From: Eubacteriales bacterium
Lineage (GTDB): Bacteria > Bacillota > Clostridia > Oscillospirales > CAG-272
DNA length: 51,940 bases
Direction: 5' to 3'
Assembly (NCBI GenBank): GCA_045605745.1
Contig: JAZUQN010000031.1
Span: 1-51,940 of the forward strand
This document shows, piece after piece, positions 7,724 through 51,932 of the stretch. The stretch's first letter is position 1, and the number at the start of each line of letters is the position of its first letter. The notes under the pieces were generated by a model. That model searched no databases. It worked only from the letters and a program-made list of their open reading frames with translations, and was not told the origin of the DNA. Position numbers and translations under genes: made by a program.

Positions 7724-7736
7724 ATTTATAAAATCA

Positions 7737-7767
7737 AAAGAGCTGAGAATTTGTCTCAGCTCTTTTT
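7737..7767 (+). terminator. intrinsic terminator after the MGS-like gene
   Basis: AAAAGAGCTGAGA / TCTCAGCTCTTTT stem followed by a T-run. Confidence 0.75.
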
Positions 7768-7803: not shown

Positions 7804-7897
7804 CAAACAGGGGTTTATGAGAGAGTTGCAGTTTTACAAACAAGAGCCCTCTGCGAAATTTTTATAAAACCACAACTCCCCTATAAACCCCTGTTTG
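7804..7897 (+). repeat. 94-bp mini-foldback; member of the dispersed repeat family seen at 17.15 kb and 43.8 kb
   Basis: CAAACAGGGGTTTAT (7804-7818) is a perfect complement of 7883-7897. The next 16 nt pair at 13 of 16 positions. The left end is homologous to the outer ends of the 0.8-kb foldback. Confidence 0.7.
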
Positions 7898-7909
7898 ACA
7901 AATCAATGC

Positions 7910-7946
7910 AAAAAAATCAGGCTAAGACTTAAGCTTAGCCTGATTA
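7910..7946 (-). terminator. intrinsic terminator of the aminotransferase operon
   Basis: AATCAGGCTAAG / CTTAGCCTGATT stem. An A-run on the plus strand corresponds to a U-run on the minus-strand transcript. Confidence 0.7.
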
Positions 7947-11392: not shown

Positions 11393-12811
11393 ATGAAAAA
11401 TTTTATGGATGAAAAATTTTTGCTTTCTAATGAGACAGCAGAAATACTTTATGAAAACTATGCTTCAAAAATGCCAATTATCGATTATCACTGCCATCTT
11501 CCGATAAAGGAAATTGCTGACAATGTTTCATATTCTAACATAACCGAGCTTTGGCTTTCAGGCGACCATTATAAATGGAGAGCAATGCGCTCTTGCGGTG
11601 TTGATGAAAAATTCATCACGGGGGATTCCTCTGCATATGAGAAGTTCCGGCATTATTGCAAAATCATGCCCTCTCTTATCGGCAACCCTGTTTATCACTG
11701 GAGCCATCTTGAGCTTCGCCGCTATTTCGATTGCGATCTCATCATAAACGAAAAGAACTGCGATGAGATATGGAGAATCACTGCAGAAAAGTTGGCAAAT
11801 CCCGATATGAGCGCAAGAAGCCTTATCGAAAAGAGCAACTGCGTTCTTCTCTGCACAACAGATGATCCTGCTGATTCTCTTGAATATCACAAGCAGATCG
11901 CAGAAGACAAGAGCTTTAAAACACAGGTTCTGCCTGCATTCCGCCCCGATATGGGTATAAATATCGACCGTGAAGGCATAACAGCATATATCGAAAAGCT
12001 GGGACTATCTAACGGAAAAACCATCACAGACCTAAAGAGCCTTATGGAGGCATATGAGGTATCACTTGACAGATTTGAAGCTCTCGGCTGTAAAACAGCA
12101 GACCACGGAATGGATGAGATCACCTTTGTAAAGCCTGATGAATATCACGCAGATCTTATCTTTAAAAAGGCTCTCGCATCTGACGGCAAGGATGTAACTG
12201 CTGAAGAATTTACTCTCTTTAAGAGCGAAATGATGTATTTCTTTGGCAAGCAATATAAAAAGCGCGGTTGGGTTATGCAAATACACTTTGGCGTTGCACG
12301 CAACCCCAACTCGATAATGTTCAAAAAGCTTGGTAAGGATAGCGGATATGACAATATTCACGGTCAGAGCTACACGAGAAATCTTGGATATCTGCTTGAT
12401 TATCTTATGGTTAATGAAGCACTTCCGAGAACCGTCATTTATTCCATCAATCCTGCAGATAACGAAGCAATAGGCACGCTTCTCGGCTCTTTCCAGAGCT
12501 CAAATGATAATATGCCAACCGTTATGCAGGGCAGTGCTTGGTGGTTCAATGATAATATAGACGGCATGAGAAACCAGATGAGATCTCTTGCAAATCTCAG
12601 TGCTTTTGGCAAGTTTCTCGGTATGCTGACAGACTCCAGAAGCTTCACCTCCTATCCTCGTCATGAATACTTCCGCCGCATACTCTGCGATATTATTGGA
12701 ACCTGGGTTGAGGAAGGTCTTTACCCTGCCGAATTTGACGATTTGGCACAGCTCGTTTGCGATATTTGCTATAATAACACCAAGGATTTCTTCGGTTTTG
12801 ATCTTGTTTAA
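11393..12811 (+). CDS. uxaC: glucuronate isomerase
   Basis: 472 aa. Contains PIIDYHCHL and SGDHYKWRAMR. The length and colinearity are typical of UxaC. Confidence 0.85.
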   Translation: MKNFMDEKFLLSNETAEILYENYASKMPIIDYHCHLPIKEIADNVSYSNITELWLSGDHYKWRAMRSCGVDEKFITGDSSAYEKFRHYCKIMPSLIGNPVYHWSHLELRRYFDCDLIINEKNCDEIWRITAEKLANPDMSARSLIEKSNCVLLCTTDDPADSLEYHKQIAEDKSFKTQVLPAFRPDMGINIDREGITAYIEKLGLSNGKTITDLKSLMEAYEVSLDRFEALGCKTADHGMDEITFVKPDEYHADLIFKKALASDGKDVTAEEFTLFKSEMMYFFGKQYKKRGWVMQIHFGVARNPNSIMFKKLGKDSGYDNIHGQSYTRNLGYLLDYLMVNEALPRTVIYSINPADNEAIGTLLGSFQSSNDNMPTVMQGSAWWFNDNIDGMRNQMRSLANLSAFGKFLGMLTDSRSFTSYPRHEYFRRILCDIIGTWVEEGLYPAEFDDLAQLVCDICYNNTKDFFGFDLV

Positions 12812-12834
12812 CGCAACCATAAAAAGCTTTTAAT

Positions 12835-12874
12835 AAAAAACGGGGCTGAGCCAAAAGGCTCAGCCCCGTTTTTG
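12835..12874. terminator. bidirectional intrinsic terminator
   Basis: AAAAACGGGGCTGAGCC / GGCTCAGCCCCGTTTTT stem. Confidence 0.85.
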
Positions 12875-12930
12875 CAATTATTTAGAAATGCTCCATCGAG
12901 ATTTTATCGGGATAAATGATAATTCAACAT

Positions 12931-14932: not shown

Positions 14933-15083
14933 CTCAGATATAATTTATATTGTATTAATGTTATCACATTTCTCGGTTTTTTTCAAGTATTTTTTGGAAA
15001 TCTCTATTGAAAAAAATACAAAATTGTGGTAACATAAAACAAATAGTAGCTTTAGATCGAACAAAATAAAAAGTAGGTTAATA

Positions 15084-17011: not shown

Positions 17012-17024
17012 TATAATAAACGAA

Positions 17025-17060
17025 AAGAAAAAGCTCGGCTAAGCCGAGCTTTTTCTTTTC
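17025..17060 (+). terminator. intrinsic terminator of rplS
   Basis: AAAAAGCTCGGC / GCCGAGCTTTTT stem followed by a T-run. Confidence 0.85.
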
Positions 17061-17147
17061 CCCATAAAAACAAACTAAATTTACAAAAGCATTGACAGAT
17101 ATAACGATGCATGAGACAATATAGGTAAATTTATAATACATACTATA

Positions 17148-17245
17148 AACAGGAGTTTATGGGAGAGTTTGATTTTACAAAAAAGAGCACACTGCAAAGT
17201 TTTCACTATAGAGTAGCTGACCACATACGAAAGCAGTGTGCTCTC
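17148..17245 (+). repeat. solo copy of the dispersed repeat head plus H1-type hairpin
   Basis: AAACAGGAGTTTATGGGAGAGTTTGATTTTACAAAAAAGAGCACACTGCAAAGTTTT aligns with the 7.8-kb and 43.8-kb copies. AGAGCACACTGC (17184-17195) pairs with GCAGTGTGCTCT (17234-17245). Confidence 0.65.
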
Positions 17246-17274
17246 ATATGTCTCCTCGCTAAATCAAAATTTGC

Positions 17275-17312
17275 AAAAAAGAGCTATTTGAATGTTCAAA
17301 TAGCTCTTTTTC
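17275..17312 (-). terminator. intrinsic terminator of the glpP/HAD operon (symmetrical)
   Basis: AAAAGAGCTATTTGAA / TTCAAATAGCTCTTTT stem. Confidence 0.8.
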
Positions 17313-20254: not shown

Positions 20255-21688
20255 TTATTTATCCCCCTTTGTTTTTCCGTAATTGAGGCGAGATTCTCCG
20301 CCAAACTTAGTTACATCCTCATAGGCAATGCCAAGCTCTCTTGATAGAAGCTCAACAATTCTGGGCGAGCAAAAGCCACCCTGACAGCGTCCCATTTGGC
20401 TTCTTGTTCTTCGCTTGACACCGTCAAGATCACGGGGCTTCGGATTTGTGCGTATAGCCTCAAGAATCTCTCCCTCAGTGACAGTTTCACAGCGACAAAC
20501 TATCTTGCCATAAGCCTTATCCTTTGCAATGATAGCATTCTTTTCTTCAATCGAAGCCTGTCTGAAATGATGCATAGGCTTTCTTATGGGATTAAAAGCC
20601 TTATTTTCGTGAAGCGCAAGACCGCTTTCACGAAGAATATCAACAACATATTCGGCAATTGCCGGAGAAGCGGAAAGTCCGGGGGATTCGATTCCTGCAA
20701 CATTGACAAAGCCGCGAAGCGGAGATGTTATAATAAAATCGCCCGTACTTCCAACCGCACGAAGTCCGCAGAAGGATGTTATGGTTTTGCCAAAGGGTAC
20801 TCCCTCAACATTCTCGGCAGTCTCCTTTATAACATGAGCAAAACCGCCTGCAGTTGTTGATTTATCCTCCTTGTCCTCCATATCAACCGATGTGGGGCCT
20901 GTTAAAAGATTTCCGTCAACTGTTGGAGAAACAAGAATACCTTTGCCCATTTTGCTTGGCGTTCTGAAAATAGTATGAGACACGATATTTCCACACTCTT
21001 TATCAAGAAGGATATATTCACCTCTTCTGGGATGAACCGTAAACGAGTCATCGCCAACCATTTTTGCAATGGCATCCGAATATACTCCTGCCGCATTGAC
21101 AACATATTTTGCTGTTATACTTCTGTCATTTGAGCATATCTCATAGACGCCGTTTTTGCGCTCAATAGCAGTAACGGGAAAACTGAGTTCAAGCTCTGCC
21201 CCATTATCCATTGCGTTACCGATAGCTGCAACAGTCAACTCATATGGGCATATGATTGCGCCCGTGGGTGCTCTCAGCGCACAGCTTGCGTTTTTGCCTA
21301 TATTTGGCTCAAGGCGGTGAAGCTCGTCTCTGTCAAGTATAGAAAGCTCACGAACGCCGTTTTTAACTCCACGCTCGTAAAGTGCCTTGATAGTCTCTTT
21401 ATCTTCATCCGAAAAGCCAATAACAAGAGAACCGTTGCGCTTATATTTAACGCCGAGCTCCCTTGCAACCTGCTCCATCATTTCGGAGCCTTTAACATTA
21501 AGCTTTGCTTTAAGAGAGCCTTCCTTGGCATCAAATCCTGCATGAACGATCGCAGAATTTGCTTTTGTTGCCCCCATTGCAACATCATTTTCCTTTTCAA
21601 GAAGAACGACGCGGAGATTATAACGGGATAGCTCTCTGGCTATCAGACCTCCAACAACTCCTGCACCGATTATGGCTACATCATACAT
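20255..21688 (-). CDS. FAD-dependent glycerol-3-phosphate dehydrogenase-like oxidoreductase with a C-terminal BFD-like [2Fe-2S] domain
   Basis: MYDVAIIGAGVVGG. C-terminal CRCETVTEGEI...GRCQGGFC. The 32-codon upstream extension in the ORF track overlaps the leader and has no RBS. Confidence 0.75.
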   Translation of the reverse strand: MYDVAIIGAGVVGGLIARELSRYNLRVVLLEKENDVAMGATKANSAIVHAGFDAKEGSLKAKLNVKGSEMMEQVARELGVKYKRNGSLVIGFSDEDKETIKALYERGVKNGVRELSILDRDELHRLEPNIGKNASCALRAPTGAIICPYELTVAAIGNAMDNGAELELSFPVTAIERKNGVYEICSNDRSITAKYVVNAAGVYSDAIAKMVGDDSFTVHPRRGEYILLDKECGNIVSHTIFRTPSKMGKGILVSPTVDGNLLTGPTSVDMEDKEDKSTTAGGFAHVIKETAENVEGVPFGKTITSFCGLRAVGSTGDFIITSPLRGFVNVAGIESPGLSASPAIAEYVVDILRESGLALHENKAFNPIRKPMHHFRQASIEEKNAIIAKDKAYGKIVCRCETVTEGEILEAIRTNPKPRDLDGVKRRTRSQMGRCQGGFCSPRIVELLSRELGIAYEDVTKFGGESRLNYGKTKGDK

Positions 21689-22757: not shown

Positions 22758-22819
22758 CTTCTATGCACCTCTATATAAACTTAACCGGCATTTGGCTGAA
22801 CATGCCGACTTTTTTAAAT

Positions 22820-23183
22820 TTGTAACCGAGCCTATAAGCCGGGTTCTGTCGTGAGCGATCATCAATCTGTGCGCAGTGTTGCCACGGCGCTCAAGCGCAA
22901 ATGCGCTTTGCCACCTGCGGATATATGTCGGGCAAACGATCCGCTTGCGGTGTTGCTTCGGATAGGGTTTACATGGCACCCCTTGTCACCAAGGGGTCGG
23001 TGAGCTCTTACCTCACCATTCCATCCTTGCCTGCGAAAAACGCATAGGCGGTTTATTTCTGTTGCACTTTCCCTAAGGTCACCCTCGGCTGATGTTATCA
23101 GTTATCCTGCCCTATGAAGCCCGGACTTTCCTCATGATAATACCTTTCGGCACCATATCACGCAACCGCTCAGCTCGGTTACT
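22820..23183 (-). ncRNA. rnpB: RNase P RNA
   Basis: The minus strand contains GAGGAAAGTCCGGGC (P4 5' strand; rc of 23121-23135) and ACAGAACCCGGCTTATAGGCTCGGTTAC at the 3' end, which pairs with GTAACCGAGC at the 5' end (P1). The ends are approximate. Confidence 0.9.
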
Positions 23184-23977: not shown

Positions 23978-24059
23978 TTTGAATACTCCTTTCTTTGCAA
24001 TATGTAAAGGCAGCCTCACGAATAGCCGTGTTGCTGCCTTAAAAATGCAAAAAAAGATC

Positions 24060-24145
24060 AAACAACTTCCTACGCCGGTATTATCCGTATCAGGTTATAA
24101 GGGTTCGGATCTCTCCGTCTCAGCCAAAGGCACCCCTGCGTGTGA
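24060..24145 (-). promoter_or_regulatory. TPP (THI-box) riboswitch
   Basis: The minus strand reads CGCAGGGGTGCCTTTGGCTGAGACGGAGAGATCCGAACCCTTATAACCTGATACGGATAATACCGGCGTAGGAAG. It contains the conserved CTGAGA and ACCTGAT.CGGATAAT.CCGGCG elements. Confidence 0.9.
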
Positions 24146-24174
24146 CTGCGTCACATATTAAATTTTACTTTTTC

Positions 24175-24825: not shown

Positions 24826-26271
24826 ATGAAATCAAAGCTCTGTTTTTTCATAATAACACTGTGTTTTCTTTTTATCTTCGGATGCGGTGAAAAAGCTTTA
24901 GAATATTCATTTACAAATGTTATAGAGGAAAATGTCACCTCCGATGGGCATTCGAGAAATGTGCGCATTATGCGTCTTGATACCAATTCAAAACATTCCG
25001 ATGAAATAAACGATGCGCTATCCACTAAATTTGTCAACATATATAATGACTATATGGCAGGCAAGGGAGACACCTTTGGCTCTCTTGTGATTGATTATAC
25101 ATATCATCTTGGGGGAGATATTCTCTCGGTAACAGGTATTGCTGACATTCCAAAGGCGGAGATGCATACTCTGTTTTCGAGAAGTATATATCTTGACACG
25201 GAAAAAGATGTGCTCTACACCGCCGAAGAATATTCTGAGATCCTTGGTATAGACTTAAACGCCGTAAAAGAAAAAGTTTCAAAGGAAATCGGCGGAGATC
25301 TTGATGTAGAGCCATCGTTTGACGGCCTGTTTCATCACAACGGCGACATTGTTTTTATATTCAGCAAAGAGAACCCTTGGCATGGCTACACCGTTTTTTA
25401 TAACTATACAAAAAACACCTATGGCCAGGCAAGCGGCCTCGGATTTTCCGGATTTGATTCTCTTAAAATAGAAAAGGCAGAGCTGCACTTTTATGAAAGT
25501 GATATGCATATCCCGGAACAGGTGAAATTGGTCGGAAAAACTATACATTTCAAAAATACAATAGGAGAAAGCGAGCCTCTCTATTTTTCAAGCTTTTTCA
25601 ATCGTTATTTTGCGGGTTTTTATGGCGATATCAGCATAGAAAAGATTTTTGTGGGTGAGGCTGTGCTTGAGGTTTCACCTTCACATTATAATGATTATAT
25701 GGGATTAAAAGCCCTTAATATCAATTCAATATCCGCTTTTGGGCACACACTTGAGCTTTATAACCCTATTTTGCTTGATGGATTAAAACGTGTACCGATT
25801 TATTATACAGACGATTACTTTCTGTTTTCAGATAACCTGATTATAACAAAGCAAGGAATACACCTCTTTGAAGATTATTCTAACGGGGGATGGACAGAAA
25901 ATACTATTGTTACCGAAATATTTATCGAATATGACGGAAGCCTTGCTTATATAAAAAGACCAATAAAATATCCTATTGCGTATAATGAGCATCGTGAAAG
26001 AATACTTAAAAATTGCACTTCAACCGATGAATTTTGCCGAGAATACGGAAGGATCCGTATTGAGGACGGGAACTTAAGCTTTGTTCCGGAAAAAACTTTC
26101 ACCGTTTCCGAAGTCTACAATCTTTCTGCTATGCTTGATTATCTTTATGAGACATATGATGAGAACACTGTCAACAGCCGACTCGGTATACAAGAAAAAA
26201 TGACACTCTCCCAGCTTATTGCATACAATGCCCTGAAATACAGCAATGAAAATGCGAGTCAAACGCCGTAA
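24826..26271 (+). CDS. lipoprotein of unknown function (481 aa)
   Basis: Signal peptide with a lipobox, LFIFGC. GGAGGGG RBS. I recognised no catalytic motif. Confidence 0.6.
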   Translation: MKSKLCFFIITLCFLFIFGCGEKALEYSFTNVIEENVTSDGHSRNVRIMRLDTNSKHSDEINDALSTKFVNIYNDYMAGKGDTFGSLVIDYTYHLGGDILSVTGIADIPKAEMHTLFSRSIYLDTEKDVLYTAEEYSEILGIDLNAVKEKVSKEIGGDLDVEPSFDGLFHHNGDIVFIFSKENPWHGYTVFYNYTKNTYGQASGLGFSGFDSLKIEKAELHFYESDMHIPEQVKLVGKTIHFKNTIGESEPLYFSSFFNRYFAGFYGDISIEKIFVGEAVLEVSPSHYNDYMGLKALNINSISAFGHTLELYNPILLDGLKRVPIYYTDDYFLFSDNLIITKQGIHLFEDYSNGGWTENTIVTEIFIEYDGSLAYIKRPIKYPIAYNEHRERILKNCTSTDEFCREYGRIRIEDGNLSFVPEKTFTVSEVYNLSAMLDYLYETYDENTVNSRLGIQEKMTLSQLIAYNALKYSNENASQTP

Positions 26272-26338: not shown

Positions 26339-26371
26339 GTTTAAGTTACATATGTGCAAGGAGGTTATGAA

Positions 26372-27199
26372 ATGAAATTAAGTATACTAACGGCAGCTCT
26401 GATTGTTTCATTGCTTTTTGCAATATTTATGACATCCTGTAAAAAAGAAACGGCTACAAATAATGCCGAAACCGATATAAGCACAGATACAAATTTTATT
26501 ACCGAAACAGCTGCGGAGAGCACCCCGGTCTCACCGGATACCGAAGCTGAGTCTGAGGACACAGCTCCAGTTGTTTCGCCAAACGAGAATTTAAGAGTGC
26601 CCCTTGAAAACGAAAAAGCAGTTGATATGATAGAATTTCAGTATAAAAAGGCCACTGAAATCATCGACTGGGTAAAAAACGGGTCCCTTAATGCAGATAT
26701 TAACGATCCGATAGCGATGGAGGACGGCAGTATTTACTTCCCCATTATCGACACTGTGGCAAGACCTGAGCTTGACGGTAGATCTATTTGCACATTTGAC
26801 GATCTTTCTGCATATATCAAGGGGGTTTTTGCGCGTGCAATAGCTGCCGATCTTGTTGATATGGCAAAGGAGCATTATGCTGATGTTGACGGAATCCTTT
26901 GCAAAGAGGCTACTTATACAGACACAGAACCTGATGTAATGCCGCCGCAGGACGAACCCGACAATTCCGAAGAGCAGCCTCAAAAGCCAAAGGTAGTTCT
27001 GACAGAGTTTTTTCTCAGCAAATTTACGGATTCTATGTTCAGATATACTGCAAAAGTTACCTATGAAAAGCAATTTGATGAGGTAGCTGAAAATCCCGGC
27101 GATATAAATGCTGCTGAGAGCAACATAGAGTATTTTGACTTCATTTTTGAAAACACGGGAAGTGGATGGTATTGGACAGAGTTCCCTGCTCTTCCGTAA
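26372..27199 (+). CDS. lipoprotein of unknown function with an acidic Thr/Glu/Pro-rich linker (275 aa)
   Basis: MKLSILTAALIVSLLFAIFMTSCKKE contains the lipobox. AGGAGG RBS. The low-complexity linker is ETDISTDTNFITETAAESTPVSPDTEAESEDTAP. Confidence 0.6.
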   Translation: MKLSILTAALIVSLLFAIFMTSCKKETATNNAETDISTDTNFITETAAESTPVSPDTEAESEDTAPVVSPNENLRVPLENEKAVDMIEFQYKKATEIIDWVKNGSLNADINDPIAMEDGSIYFPIIDTVARPELDGRSICTFDDLSAYIKGVFARAIAADLVDMAKEHYADVDGILCKEATYTDTEPDVMPPQDEPDNSEEQPQKPKVVLTEFFLSKFTDSMFRYTAKVTYEKQFDEVAENPGDINAAESNIEYFDFIFENTGSGWYWTEFPALP

Positions 27200-27962: not shown

Positions 27963-29351
27963 ATGGGAAGACTATTCGGTACAGATGGCGTTAGAGGTAT
28001 CGCCAACACCGAGCTAAGCTGTGAAAGGGCAATGGAAATCGGACGCGCAGCAGCTGAAGTTTTAGCTGAGGGCTGCAGACGTAGACCGCTTTTTGTCATT
28101 GGCTCAGACACAAGAACCTCATCCGATATGCTTTCATGCGCAGTGATGGCAGGAATTTGCTCTATGGGTGCTGATGTTATCAGCCTCGGAGTTGTGCCAA
28201 CACCGGCGGTGGCTTACCTTGTCGGAAAATACAAGGCAGATGCGGGAATTATGATCTCCGCTTCTCACAACCCCTCTGAATTTAACGGAATCAAGATTTT
28301 CAGCGGCGACGGCTATAAGCTGCCGGATGCTCTTGAAGAAAGGATCGAAGCTATAGTTCTTGATCACGAGACAGCTCTCCAAAAGCCCACAGGTGCTGAG
28401 GTTGGAAAAATCACTCATGCAAATAAGGCTATTAAGGACTATATCGACCATGTGAAAAGCAGCGTGCTCTATTCTCTTGACGGTATGAACATTGCGGTTG
28501 ATTGTTCAAACGGCAGTGCAAGCGCAAGTGCAGCTCAGCTTTTCTCAGATCTGGGTGCAAAGGCTCATATCCTTAATGATTCTCCCAATGGAGCAAACAT
28601 CAATGAAAACTGCGGTTCAACTCATATCGATGCACTTGCAAGCTATGTGGTTGAAAACGGCCTTGAATGCGGTGTTGCTTTTGACGGCGATGCTGACAGA
28701 TGTCTGGCGGTTGACGAAAAGGGCAATGTTATCGACGGTGATATGATCATGGCTATATGTGCTCTTGATCTCATGGAGCGCGGCAGACTTAATCGCAGTG
28801 CAGTTGTTGGAACTATTATGACAAACTTTGGCTTTGGCAAATTCTGCGAAGAAAATGATCTGAAATTTGTTGCCACAAAGGTTGGCGATAGATTTGTCCT
28901 TGAGGAAATGCTGCTTGAAGATTATTCCTTTGGCGGTGAACAGTCCGGACACATAATTTTCAGAGATTTTGCTACAACAGGTGATGGCCAGCTTACAGCT
29001 TGTCAGCTTCTTTCTCTTATTCGCCGCAAACAGAAAAAGCTCTCCGAGCTTGCATCTGTTATGACACGCTATCCTCAAAAAATAGTGAATCTTTCGGTGA
29101 ATTCAGAAGGCAAGCTTCTCTTCTACACAGACAAGGATGTAAAGGATGCCATTGAAGAAGCAAAGACCACTCTTGGAGACAGCGGAAGAATAGTTGTTCG
29201 TCCTTCGGGCACAGAGCCGCTTATAAGAGTTATGGCAGAGGGCAAGGACATGAAGCAGATCGAGGAGGTTTGCGAGACGGTTGCCTCGGTTATCGAAAAG
29301 AAGCTGGGCGGCACAAGAAAAATTAAGAAAACTAAAGCGCCAGACCTTTAA
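27963..29351 (+). CDS. glmM: phosphoglucosamine mutase
   Basis: MGRLFGTDGVRG. SASHNP phosphoserine loop. FDGDADRC metal loop. GEQSGH. Confidence 0.9.
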   Translation: MGRLFGTDGVRGIANTELSCERAMEIGRAAAEVLAEGCRRRPLFVIGSDTRTSSDMLSCAVMAGICSMGADVISLGVVPTPAVAYLVGKYKADAGIMISASHNPSEFNGIKIFSGDGYKLPDALEERIEAIVLDHETALQKPTGAEVGKITHANKAIKDYIDHVKSSVLYSLDGMNIAVDCSNGSASASAAQLFSDLGAKAHILNDSPNGANINENCGSTHIDALASYVVENGLECGVAFDGDADRCLAVDEKGNVIDGDMIMAICALDLMERGRLNRSAVVGTIMTNFGFGKFCEENDLKFVATKVGDRFVLEEMLLEDYSFGGEQSGHIIFRDFATTGDGQLTACQLLSLIRRKQKKLSELASVMTRYPQKIVNLSVNSEGKLLFYTDKDVKDAIEEAKTTLGDSGRIVVRPSGTEPLIRVMAEGKDMKQIEEVCETVASVIEKKLGGTRKIKKTKAPDL

Positions 29352-29470
29352 AAAAGGTTGACGAGGAGAGAAATTATCGAAATATTCGGCGGATGTTTCT
29401 CCGGCAGTGCATACTGTCGCAGTCTGTCAGCAAATATACGAGCAATTGTAAAACAAATGGACAGACAAAA
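29336..29470 (+). ncRNA. glmS ribozyme (GlcN6P-dependent self-cleaving leader)
   Basis: A/GCGCCAGACCTTTAAAAAAGGTTGACGAGGAGAGAAATTATCGAAATATTCGGCGGATGTTTCTCCGGCAGTGCATACTGTCGC matches the conserved core (AGCGCC, GACGAGG, TATCGAA, TTCGGCGGATG). It lies directly upstream of glmS. The 3' boundary is approximate. Confidence 0.85.
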
Positions 29471-29547
29471 ATGCAAAATAAAATTTTTCAGAAAGATCGG
29501 GCAGAACGCCTGACTTTTCGGGCTTCTGCCCGCACAGGTAATTATAT

Positions 29548-43770: not shown

Positions 43771-43804
43771 TTAGGCTGGGCACATTTGTGCTCAGCCTAT
43801 TTTG
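43771..43804 (+). terminator. intrinsic terminator of the GH2-to-GH26 operon
   Basis: AGGCTGGGCAC / GTGCTCAGCCT stem followed by TATTTT. Confidence 0.7.
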
Positions 43805-43824
43805 ACGTTAACAGATAAATTTTT

Positions 43825-44120
43825 TATCGTGGAGCTGCCTTTTCACAAACAAGAGCACACTGCGAGTTTTCTGTGTGACAATCGGTTATCACAGACGAGA
43901 GCAGTGTGCGGTATGATACACCCTTATTGCGCCGGTCGTCCATGGCGCAATAAGGAAAATAGAATGGCTGACAGCGACATAAGAAAATGCAGAATTGCAT
44001 TTTCGTGGGAGCGTCGGTCTGACTAAGGAAGGGAGTCCTTAGAGGGAAACGCAGTTTCCCTCTAAGTGCGCTTTCGTGTCTTTGGCGCATACCAAAGACA
44101 CTGCCATGCGGCATGAGCAA
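43825..44120 (+). repeat. left arm of the foldback (multi-hairpin module H1-H5)
   Basis: Stems are at 43855-43909, 43922-43955, 43983-44004, 44038-44066 and 44076-44101. Confidence 0.8.
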
Positions 44121-44294
44121 CCGGAGAGAAAACTAATCTCTTTGGTTATTTTAAATGATAAGAATTACTTTATTATCTTAGATTTACTTATATATAAATT
44201 AATAAATTAGGATTATAAGAATTGTAAAGTGTTTAATATACAGTGTTAAAGAAATAACTGCTCAATTTATCAGATAAGCATCGTTTCTTCTTTT

Positions 44295-44590
44295 TTGCTC
44301 ATGCCGCATGGCACTTCCTTTGGCATGCCCCAAAGTAAGCAAAAGACACTTAGAGGGAAACTACTTTTCTCTCTAAGAACACCTTTCCTTGCGCTACCAA
44401 CGCTCCTCTGAAAATGCAATGCTGCATTTTCTAAGGGAGCTGTGCATCACTCTGTTCTTCCTTTTTGCGCCAAAAAGCACCGGCGCAATAAGGGTGTATC
44501 ATACCGCACACTGCTCTCGTCTGTGATAAGCGATTGCTAAGCAAAATTTTCGCAGTGTGCTATTTTTTGTGAAAAGGCAGCTCCACGATA
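44295..44590 (-). repeat. right arm of the foldback (inverted copy of the left arm)
   Basis: The reverse complement begins TATCGTGGAGCTGCCTTTTCACAAAAAATAGCACACTGCG and ends TGCCATGCGGCATGAGCAA, as in the left arm. Confidence 0.8.
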
Positions 44591-44617
44591 AACTACTGTT
44601 TGCAAGGGAAACATCCG

Positions 44618-44652
44618 CAAAAAAGAGGCTGAATTTCTTTCAGCCTCTTTGA
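44618..44652 (-). terminator. intrinsic terminator of the 44709 AraC gene
   Basis: AGAGGCTGAA / TTCAGCCTCT stem. An A-run on the plus strand corresponds to a U-run on the minus-strand transcript. Confidence 0.75.
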
Positions 44653-44708: not shown

Positions 44709-45533
44709 CTACGCCTTCGAATATTGCTTTATAAACTCTGAGGGGGATACCCCAACCTCAGCCTTAAAAACTCGGTTAAAATTAGATACCGAATTAAATC
44801 CGCAAATATCGGCAACCTCTATAATTGCAGTTTTGCTTGTGAGGAGCAGTATTTTTGAATAATTAATCTTCAGAGAATTAAGAAAATCGATATATGTCCT
44901 GCCCGTTAAAGCTTTAAACTGCCTGCAAAAATGTCCCGAGGAATAACCGCATTTTTTTGCCATTTCCTCAATTGTAGGGTTCTCCCTGTAATGCAGAAAA
45001 AGATGCTGCATTCCCTTTTGGATAGGGTCAAGCTCTGAAGAAAAAGCAGGAATACTGTTTTTCTCTGCAAGTCTTAAAATAAATATCAAAAAACACTCAA
45101 GAATATTTTTTGTATATCTTTCGGTATATCTGTCATTTGGCTCACAGCTTTCCCTCAGCTGATTTATTATGTCATTTGCAACCTTCATTTCCTCTGCATT
45201 CATGCATAGAACAATATTGCCAGTTTTATTCATAAATTTTTGCACGATATCCGAGCTATAAAAATAGTTATCAAAGCAGATATTTATAGCTGTTAGCGTA
45301 CTTTCAAAATCAAACATCTGGTGAAAGTCCACAGGCGATAACAGATAAAGACTTCCCTTTCCAATGTCATAAACCGTTCCGTTAAGAAGCTGTTTGCATT
45401 TTCCCGAGATAACAAGCTCTATCTCAAAATAGTCATGCATATGAAGCGGTGTTGTATTCGCGGGTTTGTTAATGATTATCCTTATGTGTTTATTTTCGAT
45501 TATCTCTTTTGGCAATCTATATATCTCAGGCAC
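44709..45533 (-). CDS. AraC family transcriptional regulator (cupin plus HTH), divergent from the GH92-like genes
   Basis: 274 aa. C-terminal HTH MAKKCGYSSGHFCRQFKALTGRTYIDFLNSLKINYSKILL...SNFNRVFKAEVGVSPSEF. Confidence 0.8.
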   Translation of the reverse strand: MPEIYRLPKEIIENKHIRIIINKPANTTPLHMHDYFEIELVISGKCKQLLNGTVYDIGKGSLYLLSPVDFHQMFDFESTLTAINICFDNYFYSSDIVQKFMNKTGNIVLCMNAEEMKVANDIINQLRESCEPNDRYTERYTKNILECFLIFILRLAEKNSIPAFSSELDPIQKGMQHLFLHYRENPTIEEMAKKCGYSSGHFCRQFKALTGRTYIDFLNSLKINYSKILLLTSKTAIIEVADICGFNSVSNFNRVFKAEVGVSPSEFIKQYSKA

Positions 45534-45779: not shown

Positions 45780-47930
45780 ATGGAAAGCAAAGAAAAACCG
45801 ATAAAGTTCGTAGATATGACATTTGCTACAGATGCAAGAAGCCTTTGTACCATTGGCCCATCACGTCCTCACTCATCGGTTTCACCCGGCCCCGATACCT
45901 TTCCCGCAAGCTATTCAACAGGTTATCTTGCAGATAAGCCTATACGCGGCTTTTCTCATGTACACGTTAATGCAGGTGAAGCAAAATATGGTAATTTTCT
46001 TTTTTCACCTCAGATAGGTCTTGCAACGGCTCTAAACAGCCACGATTCAGAAAAAGCAAATGAAAATCCCCTGCCTTCCGAATATAACGTCACGCTCACA
46101 AGATATGGGATCGATTGTTCAATGACGCTTACAGATCATTGCGTTTTCTATAAATTCGTATATCCAAAATCAAAAGAAGCAAGCCTTGTCATCGACATAT
46201 CCACCTTTCACCAAATTCATAAAGCACTTGCCGAACAAGTTGAGGTTAAAATTTCGGAAAATGAACGGGGAAATACCATCATCTTCGGTGAAGGTTTCTT
46301 TACAGGTGCAAGATATAATGCGCATTTTTACGCTGAGATAAATAAAAAGATTGCAAAGTCCGGCACATTTATCGGTCATGAAAAAACAGACAAAAAAGAA
46401 CTTGGTCCAATTGATGTCACAGAAGAGACAAGAGATAGCGGCATGGGTGCTTTTTTACAGTTTGAAACCGAAGAAAAAGAAGAAATATACATAAAAGTAG
46501 GAATTTCGTTTAAGGACATCGAAAAGGCAAAAGCGTGGCTCGATAGTGAGATACCCCATTGGGATTATGATAAAATAAAAGAAGAAACCTCGGAGATCTG
46601 GGAAAAAGAGCTTGGCAAGATCACAATTGCCGAAAGTGCAACGCCCGAACAAAAAAGACGCTTCTATAGCTGTCTTTACATCTGCAACAAGCTGCCGCGC
46701 GATCGCACCGGAGATTTCAACGAATATCCGGAGAACGCAGAGATGGTAGACGACCATATTGCTATCTGGGACACATTCAGAACTCTTTACCCTCTTTACA
46801 CCCTAACAGATCCGGAATTTGTTAAAAAGACAGTAAACAGCTTTATAACCAGATTCAAGATAAACGGCTTCATCAGAGATATATATGCCGGTGGCAAGGA
46901 AAGAAGAAGAAACCAAGGCGGAGACAATACAGATAATATCATCGTTGAAGCCTATCTCAAAAAGATTCCCGGCATCGACTGGGAGGGTGCATACGAAATA
47001 ATAAAGCACGATGCGGAAAATTGGCGAGACGATCAGAATTCATGGTTCCCCGAGATGGGCGTGTCATCAACATACCGCGATATAGGCTTTATCCCCGCAG
47101 ATGATGAGGAAAGAAATGTTATGTGCTGTTCAAAGCAGCTTGAATATTGCTATAATGACTATCTTGCAGCTCAGATGGCTCTGGGCATGGGCGACAGAGA
47201 AAACTATGAAAAATGGATAAAGCGCAGTGAAAACTGGAAAAACATCTGGAATCCGGATATGGAGTGTGCAGGCTTCCAGGGGTTCATTTGGCCAAAGGCT
47301 CTTGATGGAAGTTGGCTCGAGCCTAATTCTATCATCCCCGATCCAAAAACCTTTATCGGTTCTTGGAAACCGTATTTCTACGAAGGATATGCATATGAAT
47401 ATTCTTTTATGGTGCCCCATGCGGTTGAAGAAATTGTTGAAAGAATGGGCGGAGATAAGCTTTTCTGCGACAGAATAGAATATGGAATGGACAACGGCTG
47501 CATAAACGGTGGAAATCAGCCGGGAATGCTGCAGCCTCTCCTTCCAAACCACACAAATCAGCCTTGGCGAACGGCAGATATGGTCAAAAAACAGCTTGCA
47601 AAATACAAGCCCAACGGAACACCGGGCTGCGAGGATTCCGGTTGCTTTGCTTCCTATTATGTATTTCTCACACTTGGAATCGTTCCAAACGGAGGTCAAG
47701 ATTTTTACTATATCACAAGTCCAAGCTATGAAAACAGTGTCATAAGTTTTGAAAACGGAAAGCAATTTGTTATCAGAGCAGAAAACTTCTCCGAGGAAAA
47801 CAAGTATATTCAGTCTGCAACTCTTAACGGCAAGCGTCTTAACCGCACTGTGATAAAGCACAGCGAGATCATTTGCGGCGGCGAGCTTGTGCTTAATATG
47901 GGCAGTGAAAAAACCGATTACACAAAATAA
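45780..47930 (+). CDS. GH92-like glycoside hydrolase (putative alpha-mannosidase), cytoplasmic
   Basis: 716 aa with no signal peptide. GPSRPHSSVSPGPDT, IRGFSHVHV, PSEYNVTL..YGIDCSMTLT..FYKFVYP, YEGYAYEYSFMVPH and GTPGCEDSGCFASYYVF are colinear with GH92 conserved blocks, as recalled from memory. Confidence 0.6.
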   Translation: MESKEKPIKFVDMTFATDARSLCTIGPSRPHSSVSPGPDTFPASYSTGYLADKPIRGFSHVHVNAGEAKYGNFLFSPQIGLATALNSHDSEKANENPLPSEYNVTLTRYGIDCSMTLTDHCVFYKFVYPKSKEASLVIDISTFHQIHKALAEQVEVKISENERGNTIIFGEGFFTGARYNAHFYAEINKKIAKSGTFIGHEKTDKKELGPIDVTEETRDSGMGAFLQFETEEKEEIYIKVGISFKDIEKAKAWLDSEIPHWDYDKIKEETSEIWEKELGKITIAESATPEQKRRFYSCLYICNKLPRDRTGDFNEYPENAEMVDDHIAIWDTFRTLYPLYTLTDPEFVKKTVNSFITRFKINGFIRDIYAGGKERRRNQGGDNTDNIIVEAYLKKIPGIDWEGAYEIIKHDAENWRDDQNSWFPEMGVSSTYRDIGFIPADDEERNVMCCSKQLEYCYNDYLAAQMALGMGDRENYEKWIKRSENWKNIWNPDMECAGFQGFIWPKALDGSWLEPNSIIPDPKTFIGSWKPYFYEGYAYEYSFMVPHAVEEIVERMGGDKLFCDRIEYGMDNGCINGGNQPGMLQPLLPNHTNQPWRTADMVKKQLAKYKPNGTPGCEDSGCFASYYVFLTLGIVPNGGQDFYYITSPSYENSVISFENGKQFVIRAENFSEENKYIQSATLNGKRLNRTVIKHSEIICGGELVLNMGSEKTDYTK

Positions 47931-47960: not shown

Positions 47961-50900
47961 ATGAAAAAACGCTTTTTAAGTCTTCTCTTGGCAATTATCA
48001 TGGTTATGGGAACAATAAGCATTCCCGTAGCATTTGCCAAAGACACTGCAGAGTCTTATGTATCCGATGCAAATTATGCAGCGGCTACAACAGACGAGGA
48101 TCTGACAAAATATGTCAACATGAGCTACGGAACAGGCACAAACAGTGAGTGCCTCATCGGTCCCTCAAGACCAAACGGCTCTGTTCATCCGGGTCCTGAC
48201 ACATACCCCACAAATAACTACACAGGTTATTATCCCAACAAGCCTATAAGAGGCTTCTCACAGCTCCACATTCAGTCGGGCGAGGGACGCTTCGGACAGT
48301 TCCTCATTTCTCCCCAGGTAGGCTTGTCAGTAGCACTTGACAGCCACGACTCGAATGTGGCAAACGAAAACCCAACAGCAACCGAATATAGCGTAACACT
48401 TGCAAAGTACGATATCGACTGTGCGCTTACGCCTACAGAAAATGCTGTAATCTATAAGTTTACATATCCTCAAGGAACAGATGACGGAAGTATCCTTCTT
48501 GATATGATCCACCACGTTCCGGTTTATAACGAGGCAAACGGCGGCGTTTATAACAAGGAAGCAAAGGATGTAGATATAAAAATTGAGCAGGACGCAGATG
48601 GAAATACCGTTCTTTACGGCGGTGCAAAGTACGGTGCGCACGGCAGTTCTGACCGTTATTACTATTTCTATGCTATTATCGATTCCGCTTCTCTTGCAAA
48701 TAAAACCATTGGTGTTTACAAGCAGGGTGCCATCGTTGACGGAGCAACCTCTATTGACACTGATACAACCGCTGTTGTTGACCCAGACTTTAAGGGTACA
48801 GGAGCATATCTTAAATTTGACCTTGCTGAGAATGCCGAGACAACCGTTAGGATGAAGATTGCAGTTTCCTTTAAGGATGTTGCAAAGGCAAAGGCTTCTC
48901 TTGAAGCTGAGATCCCCGCTTGGGATTATGACAAGGTTAAAAATGACAACAATACTATCTGGAATGATAAGCTTGATGTTATGGAGGTCAGCGGTCTTAC
49001 CGAGGATCAGAAGATAATGTTCTATTCCAACCTTTATGACACATTCCTTCAGCCCCGTTACCGTACAGGCGAGCTTACTGAATACGGCGACGGAATGATG
49101 CTCGACGACCACGTTGCAACCTGGGACACCTTCCGAACCCTTTTCCCACTTCTTACACTCACAAATCCTCAGCTTGTTACGGATCAGGTTGAAAGCTATC
49201 TTGTCCGTTTTGCGGACAAGGAAGAGGGCAGCGCAGATACCGTTAAGGCAGTTAAGGATATTTTCACAGGCTTTGAGCGCTCGGGCACAAACCAGGGCGG
49301 TGATAATATCGACAATGTTATTGCTGAAGCATATGTTAAGGGACTTATCCCCGAGGATATGATGGATGCAGTATATGAGCTTGTGGAATTTGAAGCAAAT
49401 ATGATGCGTGTTGACCGCGGAACTTCGGGTCAAAGTACTGGCTCAGCCAGTTCAACATATAAGGATCTGGGCTTTATCCCCGCAGATCAATATCCTATGA
49501 TGAACTGCAACACCCAGCTTGAATATTGCTATAATGACTACTGTCTTGCGCAGATCGCATATGGCGAGGGCGACATGGAGCTTTATAATAAGCTTATGGC
49601 GCGCAGCGCATCCTGGCTCAATATCTGGAACGAGGATGCTGAGGGAGCCGGATTTACAGGCTTTATCTGGCCTAAAAATTCAAACGGCACCTTTGTTGAG
49701 CCTAACAGCAATCTTACAAGTGCTACCTACAGAGTTGGTTCATGGAAGCCGTATTTCTATGAGGGTACTCCTTATGAATATTCCTTCTTCGTTCCTCACG
49801 ATATGGAAACACTCATTGAAAAAATGGGCGGCGAAAAGGAATTTATTGAGAGACTCCAGGTTGGTATAGATAATGGATATATCCATATAGGCAACCAGCC
49901 GGGTTATATTCAAGCATTCCTGTTCAACTATACAAGCGAGCCTTGGCACACCACCGATTATGTAGAACAGCTTATCAAAAAATATACTATAAACGGCACT
50001 CCCGGCTGTGAGGACTCGGGCGCAAGCTGCGCATGGTATATATTTGCCAACGTAGGCTTTTTCCCCAATGCCGGTCAGGATATTTATTGGCTCACCAGCC
50101 CTAAATATGAGCAGACCACATTCAATCTCGACAACGGTAACACCTTCGTAGTTAAGGCAAACAATCTCTCGGATGAAAACAAGTACATCCAGTCGGTAAC
50201 TCTTAACGGAGAGGTGCTTAACGACACAATGATCAGACATTCTGATATAGTAAACGGTGGCACGCTTGTATTCAATATGGGCGATACTCCCGTTAACTAT
50301 GCTTCACCCGAGGTTGGCAGCGGAAAGACAGCAAACGGCGAATACAACTGGTCCCTCCGCGAAAACGGCGTTCTCAGCATTTCGGGAGAGGGCGACGGCA
50401 CTCTTAATTTTGATACCGTTATAACAGAGGATAATTTCTCCGATATTCCTTGGAATGCTTATAAGAACAGCATAAAGAGCGTAAGCATCGCAGAATCAAG
50501 CGGCATTGTCAGCGTTTCTGATTATGTTTTCGCAGACCTTCCCGTATGTAAAAAGATAATTATCCCCAAGACTCTTACAGATCTGGGTGCAAATGGTATT
50601 TTTGCGGGTGACAGCGCTCTATATACCGTATGCAACCACGACAGCAACACCGAGGGCGAAATAAACCTTAAAACTGTGACAGCTCTTGGAACTGACATAT
50701 TTAAAGACTGCTCTGCAGGGCTCACTGTCAAGGTTCGCATCGGTGAGGCTGATTTTGCTCCCGTAAAATGGTTCACCTCATCCACAACAGTTAATTTTGC
50801 GGTTGACGGCAAAACATCTGCCAGTGAATGGCTTAGTAGCATAGAGACAAATGACACCCGTGACTCAAGCTATAAGTTCACAATTGGTAAAATTGATACC

Positions 50901-51932
50901 ATTGCGGGCGGAGAAAATACAGTATATCAGAATGAATATAGCTGGACTCTTAACACCGAAAGCGGTATTCTTACATTTGTAAACAACCGCAGCGGATATA
51001 ATGAGCTTGCTTTCTCAAAATCCTCCACCGCATTCAATGAATGGGTAGTTGACTGGAAGGATGAAATACAGCATATCGTTATTCCTTCGTTCAGTAAATT
51101 CTCAATAGATAAAGCCTCCAATGGAGTCACATCTCCCTTTGCAGGACTCACAAATCTCAAAACTGTTAAAATTGACACAACAAGATGGCTTCTTAACAGC
51201 CACGCAGTATTTGAAAATTGCAAAAATCTGACCACTCTCGGTAGCTCTGATACATTTGAGACGGGTAAGATAAAGCTTGAAGGCTTCGATATGGAAAATC
51301 TGTGGGGAGGCAGTGCCGCACCTATGTTTAAGGGATGCAAAGCTATCACAAGCGTTGATTATACAGGACTCAATGCTTTCAGCGATGGCGGCAATACCCC
51401 ACAAGATCTTAAGCTTGCCGGAGATACCTTCCTTGACTGCACATCACTTACCGAGGTTATATTTGGTAATGCTACAGCAATCGCTGAAAATACATTTAAC
51501 GGCTGCAGCGCACTACGGGAGATCACAATTCCCGCATCTGTTACATCCATTGGCAAAAATGCCTTTGTAGGATGCACAAATCTACAAACTGTCACCATTG
51601 AATCAACAAGCTTCACTGCCGCAATGGCAAATGCAACCTCTTTCCCGGATCAGGCAGGTCTCACAATATACTGTCCAAACAAAACCGTTAAGGAAGCTTT
51701 CGATTCCTATGGATACACCGAAACCAAGGTAGTTTACGAGCAGTATGTTACAGGCTCTGAAACCGTTAATAACCTTTATAGCTGGACTCTCGATAAGGAA
51801 ACGGGAATCCTTACATTTAAGGATGACAAAGCTGCTGGTGATTGGTGCGAGCTTTCCTTTACAAGCTCGGCAACAGCATTTGCAACATGGGTCAAAGACT
51901 ATAAGGATGAGATAAAGCAAGTCGGATCGTAG
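47961..51932 (+). CDS. secreted GH92-like glycoside hydrolase fused to BspA-type leucine-rich repeats
   Basis: Signal peptide MKKRFLSLLLAIIMVMGTISIPVAFA. The first ~770 aa are paralogous to the upstream gene. The C-terminus carries LRR_5-like units (NTFNGCSALREITIPASVTSIGKNAFVGCTNLQTVTI). The stop codon lies 8 nt from the window end, in the middle of a repeat module. Confidence 0.65.
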   Translation: MKKRFLSLLLAIIMVMGTISIPVAFAKDTAESYVSDANYAAATTDEDLTKYVNMSYGTGTNSECLIGPSRPNGSVHPGPDTYPTNNYTGYYPNKPIRGFSQLHIQSGEGRFGQFLISPQVGLSVALDSHDSNVANENPTATEYSVTLAKYDIDCALTPTENAVIYKFTYPQGTDDGSILLDMIHHVPVYNEANGGVYNKEAKDVDIKIEQDADGNTVLYGGAKYGAHGSSDRYYYFYAIIDSASLANKTIGVYKQGAIVDGATSIDTDTTAVVDPDFKGTGAYLKFDLAENAETTVRMKIAVSFKDVAKAKASLEAEIPAWDYDKVKNDNNTIWNDKLDVMEVSGLTEDQKIMFYSNLYDTFLQPRYRTGELTEYGDGMMLDDHVATWDTFRTLFPLLTLTNPQLVTDQVESYLVRFADKEEGSADTVKAVKDIFTGFERSGTNQGGDNIDNVIAEAYVKGLIPEDMMDAVYELVEFEANMMRVDRGTSGQSTGSASSTYKDLGFIPADQYPMMNCNTQLEYCYNDYCLAQIAYGEGDMELYNKLMARSASWLNIWNEDAEGAGFTGFIWPKNSNGTFVEPNSNLTSATYRVGSWKPYFYEGTPYEYSFFVPHDMETLIEKMGGEKEFIERLQVGIDNGYIHIGNQPGYIQAFLFNYTSEPWHTTDYVEQLIKKYTINGTPGCEDSGASCAWYIFANVGFFPNAGQDIYWLTSPKYEQTTFNLDNGNTFVVKANNLSDENKYIQSVTLNGEVLNDTMIRHSDIVNGGTLVFNMGDTPVNYASPEVGSGKTANGEYNWSLRENGVLSISGEGDGTLNFDTVITEDNFSDIPWNAYKNSIKSVSIAESSGIVSVSDYVFADLPVCKKIIIPKTLTDLGANGIFAGDSALYTVCNHDSNTEGEINLKTVTALGTDIFKDCSAGLTVKVRIGEADFAPVKWFTSSTTVNFAVDGKTSASEWLSSIETNDTRDSSYKFTIGKIDTIAGGENTVYQNEYSWTLNTESGILTFVNNRSGYNELAFSKSSTAFNEWVVDWKDEIQHIVIPSFSKFSIDKASNGVTSPFAGLTNLKTVKIDTTRWLLNSHAVFENCKNLTTLGSSDTFETGKIKLEGFDMENLWGGSAAPMFKGCKAITSVDYTGLNAFSDGGNTPQDLKLAGDTFLDCTSLTEVIFGNATAIAENTFNGCSALREITIPASVTSIGKNAFVGCTNLQTVTIESTSFTAAMANATSFPDQAGLTIYCPNKTVKEAFDSYGYTETKVVYEQYVTGSETVNNLYSWTLDKETGILTFKDDKAAGDWCELSFTSSATAFATWVKDYKDEIKQVGS

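Follow-up and report, generated by a model that had tools for sequence, protein, structure and literature searches.

A long non-coding foldback between convergent genes of an uncultured Clostridia genome: a candidate member of a MITE-like family of palindromic repeats

What is a long imperfect palindrome of ~800 nt doing between two convergent gene sets of a gut bacterium? The palindrome, hereafter the foldback, occupies positions 43808-44606 of contig JAZUQN010000031.1 (assembly GCA_045605745.1, positions 1 to 51,940; this whole 51,940-nt stretch is the window), which belongs to an uncultured Clostridia metagenome-assembled genome (MAG) whose nearest relatives found are ruminant-gut MAGs and assemblies. 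A sequence-only reading of this DNA had proposed three explanations: a foldback or MITE-like mobile element, two copies of a structured RNA, or an insulator between convergent operons. We favour, with about even confidence, the view that the foldback is the largest local member of a family of non-coding, palindromic intergenic repeats resembling miniature inverted-repeat transposable elements (MITEs). Sequence comparisons suggest that the family is defined by a conserved terminal module of ~24-45 nt, present as an inverted pair, and by a variable interior of unrelated perfect hairpins that sometimes includes a unique core.

Layout of the foldback and recurrence of its tips

The foldback consists of an arm, a unique core and an inverted arm. 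The arms (43823-44120 and 44295-44592) are identical at 243 of 297 aligned columns, with 2 gap columns (BLASTN, arm against arm: 81% over 299 nt, E 5e-73), and MAFFT pairs 43810-44125 end to end with the reverse complement of 44290-44606. The inverted arms matching at about four fifths of their positions, as first described by eye, are thus borne out, and so is the 174-nt AT-rich core between them (44121-44294), with a GC content of 15-29% against 40-50% in the arms. A repeat search resolved the inversion into three collinear blocks, of 135 nt (87%), 70 nt (73%) and 96 nt (81%), and found no tandem subrepeats in the foldback. When the halves of the core were compared with each other, no palindromy above chance was detected (528 of 2000 shuffles scored at least as high as the real sequence). 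The arms differ at 54 aligned positions in addition to the 2 gap columns; the substitutions, 23 transitions and 31 transversions, look neutral. One block of 51 nt is identical between the arms, the rest being 82% identical. The parts of the foldback are as follows:

43808-43854, plus strand: left terminal module (family tip), AACAGATAAATTTTTTATCGTGGAGCTGCCTTTTCACAAACAAGA (six-copy alignment; nhmmer E 1.8e-29)
43823-44120, plus strand: left arm (repeat search, MAFFT, BLASTN)
44121-44294, unstranded: unique AT-rich core, not palindromic (GC content, shuffle test)
44295-44592, minus strand: right arm, the more decayed copy, with mismatches in hairpins H2, H4 and H5 (alignment, folds)
44561-44606, minus strand: right terminal module, tip AAACAGTAGTTTATCGTGGAGCTG (six-copy alignment, nhmmer, tip comparison)

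The evidence for a family comes from the outer ~45 nt of each arm (AAACAG..TTTAT..GAG..TTTTCACAAAMAAGAGC), hereafter the tip, of which the window has four further copies. Searched against the window by BLASTN, the arms gave extra matches at 17156-17241 (E 1e-10) and 7814-7863 (E 1e-4), to their outer 50-87 nt. The six tips align as GCAAACAG-(G/T)RG-TTTAT-(G/C)RG-GAG-YTG..TTTT(C)ACAAAMAAGAGC, and a profile built from them and searched against the window by nhmmer found exactly six sites, the next match having an E value of 0.93. The four further tips belong to two smaller elements:

17147-17275, plus strand: element B, made of a tip, an H1-like hairpin (12-bp stem AGAGCACACTGC) and a shorter inverted tip (BLASTN, alignment, nhmmer)
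7804-7897, plus strand: element C, a 94-nt palindrome of two tips and the minimal member (self-match E 1e-9)

Tips were paired and inverted in 3 of 3 elements (the foldback, B and C). The ~45-nt tip is not palindromic internally; only the adjacent H1 forms a hairpin. Element B (~130 nt) matches the right arm at 76% over 97 nt (E 2e-11) and element C at 83% over 58 nt (E 1.5e-7), and its H1-like stem is the stem of arm H1. While B retains both tips and H1, C retains both tips, perfect, together with just the 5' half of H1 and the loop's first bases, and thus looks like an internal-deletion derivative. Neither has any core. These extra copies had gone unseen in the sequence-only reading, and their recurrence as inverted pairs, together with similar tips in relatives (see below), supports its candidate of a foldback or MITE-like element.

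Each of the three elements sits in a gap bounded by the terminators of two convergent genes, and together they occupy 3 of the 6 convergent junctions counted in the window. Element C is located between mgsA and an aminotransferase gene (flanking terminators 7736-7766 and 7915-7945) and element B downstream of rplS, between the rplS terminator (17022-17060) and another at 17276-17311. Just upstream of element B stands a good promoter-like site, TTGACA-17-GACAAT (17092-17120, plus strand); judged by consensus, a transcript of ~190 nt containing element B could run from here to the terminator at 17276-17311. At the foldback, Pfam annotation shows a plus-strand run of glycoside hydrolase (GH) family 2, ROK, esterase, SIS and GH26 (PF02156) genes that ends at 43756, and, convergent to it, an AraC-family gene (44709-45533, minus strand) followed by two GH92 genes. 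The two flanking terminators are:

43771-43804, plus strand: terminator-like hairpin of the GH2-ROK-esterase-SIS-GH26 operon, 4 nt before the foldback begins (sequence; the terminator consensus scan omits it, as its tail has only 4 T)
44622-44650, unstranded: bidirectional terminator of the convergent AraC-family gene (terminator scan, Pfam)

Could the foldback be a fold-back chimera created by metagenome assembly? The contig does come from a MAG. However, fold-back artefacts give identical arms and these arms have diverged at the positions counted above; the foldback lies within a contig of 52 kb, and the intact genes and terminators to its left differ from those to its right; and similar diverged palindromes exist at two other loci and in independent assemblies. 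We thus see only an extremely remote chance of an artefact.

Palindromic elements in related genomes

We compared ~175 kb of loci from relatives, using 477 kb of unrelated loci as control, and found that related rumen Clostridia MAGs have palindromic elements of their own, 44 to 215 nt in length. In the relative L066 (GCA_017461635.1, JAFTXK010000051.1), a 215-nt palindromic element is present at 1550-1762 and at 12703-12915, 11 kb apart and 93% identical, and it occurs again in the independent assembly L068, from position 10377. Each arm of this element contains GAGATCCTTCGCCGARGCTCAGGATGACA; similar sequences probably give spurious '...RFAQDD...' open reading frames (ORFs) in many bacteria. 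Literature word searches with its motif GATCCTTCGCC...TCAGGATGACA returned nothing relevant, and no Rfam family matched the relatives' palindromic elements. In L005, positions 21059-21226 hold a 66%-identical relative of the L066 repeat. Adjoining it, upstream of a type III glutamine synthetase gene, is a palindrome of ~105 nt (20960-21065), the inner part of which weakly resembles arm H1 (E about 0.003), a possible but unproven kinship.

Two other relatives, L065 and L071, have in common a 108-nt block of perfect hairpins, 81% identical. In L071, four different perfect hairpins are clustered at 11900-12140, just downstream of the GH26 orthologue and between two terminators; in L065, part of this cluster recurs at 81% (6542-6649) and ends in the tip AAACAATAATTT. 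L065 also carries a 44-nt minimal foldback (AAACAATAATTTATCAGTTAGTGAGGACGACCAAATTATTGTTT, 7590-7633) upstream of a flippase gene. The T and A that border this foldback could represent a TA target duplication or merely belong to the tip; in the relatives, a TA beside the tip is not distinguishable from the tip itself. In L062, the 3' end of a tyrosine-recombinase (XerC/D-like) gene lies within a 270-nt imperfect palindrome's reach (5110-5366), the two overlapping; a perfect CCACATAAT...ATTATGTGG hairpin occurs twice in this palindrome.

What do these elements have in common? Their interiors are unrelated between families, each being a string of perfect hairpins, and the likeness resides in the tips. 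The sequence AAACAATAATTT occurs 7 times in the relatives' loci, at palindromic-element tips in 7 of 7 cases, and 0 times in the unrelated control. With the tip as anchor, the foldback's right tip, AAACAGTAGTTTATCGTGGAGCTG, and the L066 tip, AAACAATAATTTGTCGAGGAGAAG, matched at 18 of 24 positions, and both tips of element B matched relatives' tips at 16 of 24; among control 24-mers, which likewise start with AAA, at least 16 of 24 was reached by 0.45% and at least 18 of 24 by 0.025%. Conserved tips, variable interiors, size variants and near-identical copies in one genome thus point to a non-autonomous transposable-element family.

Copies of the window's own tips and arms were absent from the ~175 kb of relatives. 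Exact-word scans with the arm interior and the tips gave, in two scans of a genome collection, 0 matches and 16 chance matches respectively, none of which extends, and 3 chance matches in metagenomes. In viral contigs, scanned with six patterns, the matches were due to chance, where there were any (among them a proteobacterial phage gene start with 20 nt in common with element B and an unrelated small hairpin).

Alternatively, the foldback could be a one-off local inverted duplication of a hairpin-rich spacer, immobile and functionless, with an outer module that is nothing but a diverged terminator-type sequence common in this genome. The uniqueness of the arm interior to this locus, the neutral-looking arm differences with a decaying right arm, and the failure to find a target-site duplication or a transposase all fit such a duplication, and the genome's terminators have the same style of A-tract, GAGC...GCTC and T-tract. 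However, (i) the common module reaches ~30 nt outside the H1 stem and U-tract; (ii) it comes in inverted pairs in 3 of 3 cases; (iii) its outermost 24 nt resemble the tips of demonstrably dispersed repeats in related genomes; and (iv) a 51-nt identical block amid arms of 82% identity speaks against pure neutrality. We consider a local duplication unlikely.

Hairpins, outward-facing ends and the case for RNA

Each arm contains five to six strong local hairpins. The five that had been described, H1 to H5, are all present (sequence, repeat search, folds), and the loops of H2 and H5 differ between the arms as reported (arm alignment). Their positions are:

43855-43909, minus strand: H1 of the left arm, GCACACTGC...GCAGTGTGC (sequence and folds)
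43922-43955, unstranded: H2 of the left arm, perfect 12-bp stem (repeat search, hairpin scan)
43983-44004, unstranded: H3 of the left arm, perfect 9-bp stem (hairpin scan)
44038-44066, unstranded: H4 of the left arm, perfect 13-bp stem (repeat search, hairpin scan)
44076-44101, unstranded: H5 of the left arm, perfect 10-bp stem (arm comparison, hairpin scan)
44506-44560, plus strand: H1 of the right arm (sequence and fold)

Perfect hairpins (stem of at least 9 bp, loop of 3-12 nt) number 18 in the window and 1-3 in shuffled sequences; 9 are obvious terminators, 4 lie within 180 nt of the left arm and 1 lies in the right arm. The predicted fold of the left arm has an energy of -130 kcal/mol (z -8.1) and that of the right arm -98 to -103 kcal/mol (z -4 to -5).

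Are these hairpins maintained as RNA? The sequence-only reading had noted that stems are kept while loops diverge. We compared the two arms, only two sequences, using the left-arm fold as a guide and found that 76 of its 107 predicted pairs are unchanged and that paired columns differ less often than unpaired ones (31/205 versus 26/96, Fisher p=0.018). The observation is thus moderately supported, but only two pairs are compensatory: both are in H5, where they changed on both sides and still pair, and a third double change there broke its pair. One-sided changes show no consistent strand preference. The stems of the left arm are all Watson-Crick, with no G-U in at least 53 hairpin pairs, and thus fit DNA palindromes better than an evolved RNA; the mismatch in right-arm H4 is a G-U on the outward-reading strand. 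The RNA-structure evidence for the arms is weak, and the earlier claim of constraint on structure was overstated, since the p value comes from a single pair of sequences. A giant arm-to-arm RNA hairpin under selection was rejected: G-U-compatible transitions show no strand bias (10 versus 13), so the whole foldback is not maintained as an RNA duplex.

The ends of the foldback have a polarity of their own. On the minus strand the left H1 is followed by the U-rich UCUUGUUUGUG (43844-43854), and on the plus strand the right H1 by the U-rich UAUUUUUUGU (44561-44570). On the equivalent strand, element B has UUUUUUG after its 12-bp H1 and element C continues with UUUGCUUUUUCUC. Judged by sequence, H1 and the U-tract of each arm would form an outward-facing, terminator-like site, which the terminator consensus scan misses because of the long H1 loop. 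An insulator between convergent operons, one of the candidates first proposed, may have its observable basis in these two outward sites. Conservation across the family is highest in a stretch of ~30 nt past the U-tract. For element C the folding energy is -51.6 kcal/mol on the minus strand versus -37.8 kcal/mol on the plus strand, a difference of 14 kcal/mol that arises because 5 of its 6 transition differences become G-U on the minus strand. Two further signals were detected inside the foldback:

44119-44147, plus strand: weak terminator-like hairpin at the inner end of the left arm, 11 pairs of which 4 are G-C, tail ATTTTAAA (terminator scan)
44221-44249, minus strand: best promoter-like site of the region, TTAACA-17-TACAAT (10/12), directed into the left arm (consensus match only)

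Taken at face value, these signals would suit two paralogous small RNA (sRNA) genes of ~300-370 nt that diverge from the AT-rich core, left on the minus strand and right on the plus strand, each ending at H1 and its U-tract. The outward U-runs UCUUGUUUGUG and UAUUUUUUGU and the UUUUUUG of element B, the 10/12 promoter-like site in the core, the outward G-U of right-arm H4, the better fold of element C on the equivalent strand, the more conserved stems and the two compensatory H5 pairs are all in line with such genes. Contrary to this expectation, the consensus scan found no counterpart promoter serving the right arm, and one half of the core is unrelated to the other. If the RNA stopped at the U-tract, it would be unexplained why the ~30 nt past it are the best conserved across copies and genomes. 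Element C lost half of H1, yet its tips are perfect, and neither the G-U-free stems of the left arm nor the one-sided changes, with no consistent strand preference, are what such genes predict. Finally, neither an Rfam match nor an arm-interior homologue was found in any collection searched. We consider a pair of sRNA genes decidedly unlikely.

For the foldback, Rfam 15 gave nothing relevant at gathering thresholds or at a permissive setting (E up to 10); the best match, a spurious small nucleolar RNA (E 0.0023), covers the flanking terminator. No transfer RNA or transfer-messenger RNA genes were found. The candidate of two copies of a ~300-nt structured RNA is thus unsupported: Rfam gave no match, the collections searched contained no arm-interior homologue, and just two pairs are compensatory. 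The arms do resemble large structured non-coding RNAs (OLE, ROOL, GOLLD, raiA and HEARO/omega RNA) in their ~300-nt size, their several hairpins and their Clostridia genome. Unlike those, they have no Rfam match (E up to 10), no conserved homologues, no G-U pairs and, being two sequences, almost no covariation.

In agreement with the sequence-only reading, the arms do not encode protein either. The substitutions are spread evenly over codon positions (21/15/18) and accompanied by indels, and no frame stays open through both arms; the plus frame open across the left arm reads VELPFHKK* in the right arm. A search of 5.8 billion proteins returned no relative of the 98-aa ORF that lies over the left arm. 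Coding by the arms was rejected on these grounds.

The foldback among known mobile and palindromic elements

How could such a family arise and spread? Mobility of the foldback family is inferred from the comparisons above. In the mechanism that we envisage, the tips would be bound by a transposase whose gene lies elsewhere in the genome. Inverted duplication, or palindrome growth of the hairpin cargo, would have produced the long arms, of which the right one is now decaying. Terminator-flanked gaps between convergent genes could serve as safe landing sites, and the outward H1 and U-tract at each end could stop transcription leaving the element, making it harmless to its neighbours.

Several results weigh against a mobile family. 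(i) At the foldback, B and C no target-site duplication was seen, and their flanks contain no direct repeat. (ii) No empty site was found at any of the three sites: the relatives, reached through GH26 (64-67% protein identity) and the flippase (75-80%), are not syntenic there, and flanking gene order differs in all relatives compared. (iii) The window has no transposase, and none with matching ends was found. (iv) The arm interior (H2-H6 and core) is single-locus, with no other copy in the window, in the ~175 kb of relatives or in the genome, metagenome and viral word scans. (v) An nhmmer search of the relatives with the window tip profile gave no significant match, and the tip similarity rests on 24 nt. 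(vi) The copy count in the source genome comes from one contig, with three elements in 52 kb. (vii) At 300 nt, the arms greatly exceed the inverted repeats that bacterial MITEs typically have. (viii) A decaying selfish element needs no bias of substitutions away from paired columns.

The absence of mobility genes agrees with the sequence-only reading, which had seen no transposase, recombinase or reverse transcriptase in the window: Pfam detected none of these domains among 39 window ORFs. The same 39 ORFs include no replication initiator, relaxase or invertase, and a gene for a REP-associated tyrosine transposase (RAYT) was absent from the window ORFs scanned.

Which known elements does the foldback resemble? 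Palindromic repeats and MITEs that are palindromic over their whole length include Correia/NEMIS in Neisseria, ERIC in enterobacteria, RUP and BOX in Streptococcus pneumoniae and bcr1 in Bacillus cereus, and some such families have terminator or promoter activity. Like bacterial MITEs, the foldback family is non-coding and intergenic, has terminal inverted repeats and strong hairpin potential, comes in size variants resembling deletion or insertion derivatives, and is lineage-specific in sequence. Elements B (~130 nt) and C (94 nt) also fit the size of MITEs, usually below about 500 bp, whereas the foldback, at ~800 nt, is large. It further differs in its 300-nt arms (usually at most 50 nt in MITEs), in having no visible target-site duplication and no known parent insertion sequence, and in an interior that is a string of unrelated perfect hairpins. 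Because target duplications were not seen and the parent element is not known, we file the foldback under MITEs only loosely.

A second comparison is with REPINs, which lack target duplications and in which each repetitive extragenic palindromic (REP) unit is itself a small palindrome. REPINs are REP doublets that form hairpins and are mobilised by RAYT transposases; they measure 71 or 110 bp, derive from short REPs tracked as 16-mers, are extragenic with a hairpin predicted in single-stranded DNA or mRNA, and give rise to singlets and clusters by decay (Bertels and Rainey 2011, PMC3116915). Their layout, two inverted conserved modules around a less conserved spacer, with a hairpin and an extragenic position, is that of C, B and the foldback. 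However, the ~45-nt tip is not itself a palindrome and the window has no RAYT, so we do not file the foldback there. The mosaic architecture also recalls the bacterial interspersed mosaic elements (BIMEs) of Escherichia coli. BIMEs are mosaics of REP units and other short motifs; like the foldback family, they combine a recurring module with varying hairpin units and lie after genes and between convergent genes. Contrary to BIMEs, to which it has no sequence relation, the foldback has hairpin units that are not repeated in the sequence examined. Eukaryotic foldback (FB) transposons, whose arms are made of tandem subrepeats, likewise have very long inverted arms, a short unique middle and many non-coding copies; the foldback differs in being bacterial and devoid of tandem subrepeats. 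Within these known kinds of element, the foldback is a new sequence family with an unusual build.

Hairpins or a cruciform beside an AT-rich, easily melted core could instead mark a site acting at the DNA level: a replication or transfer origin, a single-strand origin, a recombination site or an invertible segment. Perfect Watson-Crick stems, equally good on both strands, and a cluster of distinct hairpins next to such a core are what this predicts. However, the contig is chromosomal, carrying RNase P RNA, a thiamine pyrophosphate (TPP) riboswitch, a glmS ribozyme, rplS and glmS; the setting is one of housekeeping and sugar use; no initiator, relaxase, recombinase or invertase is found among the 39 ORFs; there is no plasmid or phage similarity; and the smaller relatives B and C are coreless. 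We hold such a site to be very improbable. Derivation of the DNA from a plasmid or phage was rejected, as BLASTN in distant mode gave no match. An invertible promoter segment (inverton) does not fit either: the window has no recombinase, and because both flanks are gene 3' ends behind terminators, a flipped promoter would drive no gene.

Returning to the MITE-like family, a bolder version would define an undescribed foldback superfamily of uncultured rumen Clostridia, with a ~24-nt tip (AAACA-N4-TTT-RT-CG-GGAG), unrelated perfect-hairpin cargo, arms of up to 300 nt and insertion beside intrinsic terminators without target duplication, its largest member co-opted as a divergent, self-terminating hairpin RNA pair or as a two-way transcription insulator. 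We regard this version as quite improbable. If the family is real, it would add a lineage of transposon-like palindromic repeats in the poorly studied rumen Clostridia, unusual in its conserved tips, hairpin-string interior and very long arms. Elements of this kind can pass for RNA genes, can fragment or mislead metagenome assemblies and could be used as strain markers; placed between convergent terminators and ending in outward terminator-like sites of their own, they could affect read-through. The foldback opens no long-standing question, and no new mechanism is demonstrated by it.

Other features of the window were noted in passing. For two adjacent ORFs, 24826-26271 (481 aa) and 26354-27199 (281 aa), Pfam returned nothing at E up to 1e-5. 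Three RNAs score above the Rfam gathering threshold:

22819-23181, minus strand: RNase P RNA, class A
24049-24147, minus strand: TPP riboswitch, upstream of a thiamine transporter gene
29325-29476, plus strand: glmS ribozyme, upstream of glmS

A 94-nt AT-rich imperfect palindrome (68%) at 14950-15042, in the divergent promoter region upstream of a flippase gene, is unrelated to the tip family. The two GH92 genes beyond the AraC-family gene are in tandem (45780-47930 and 47961-51932) and 58% identical in DNA over 2.2 kb; the second (47961-51932) encodes a BspA-type leucine-rich repeat region at its C-terminus.

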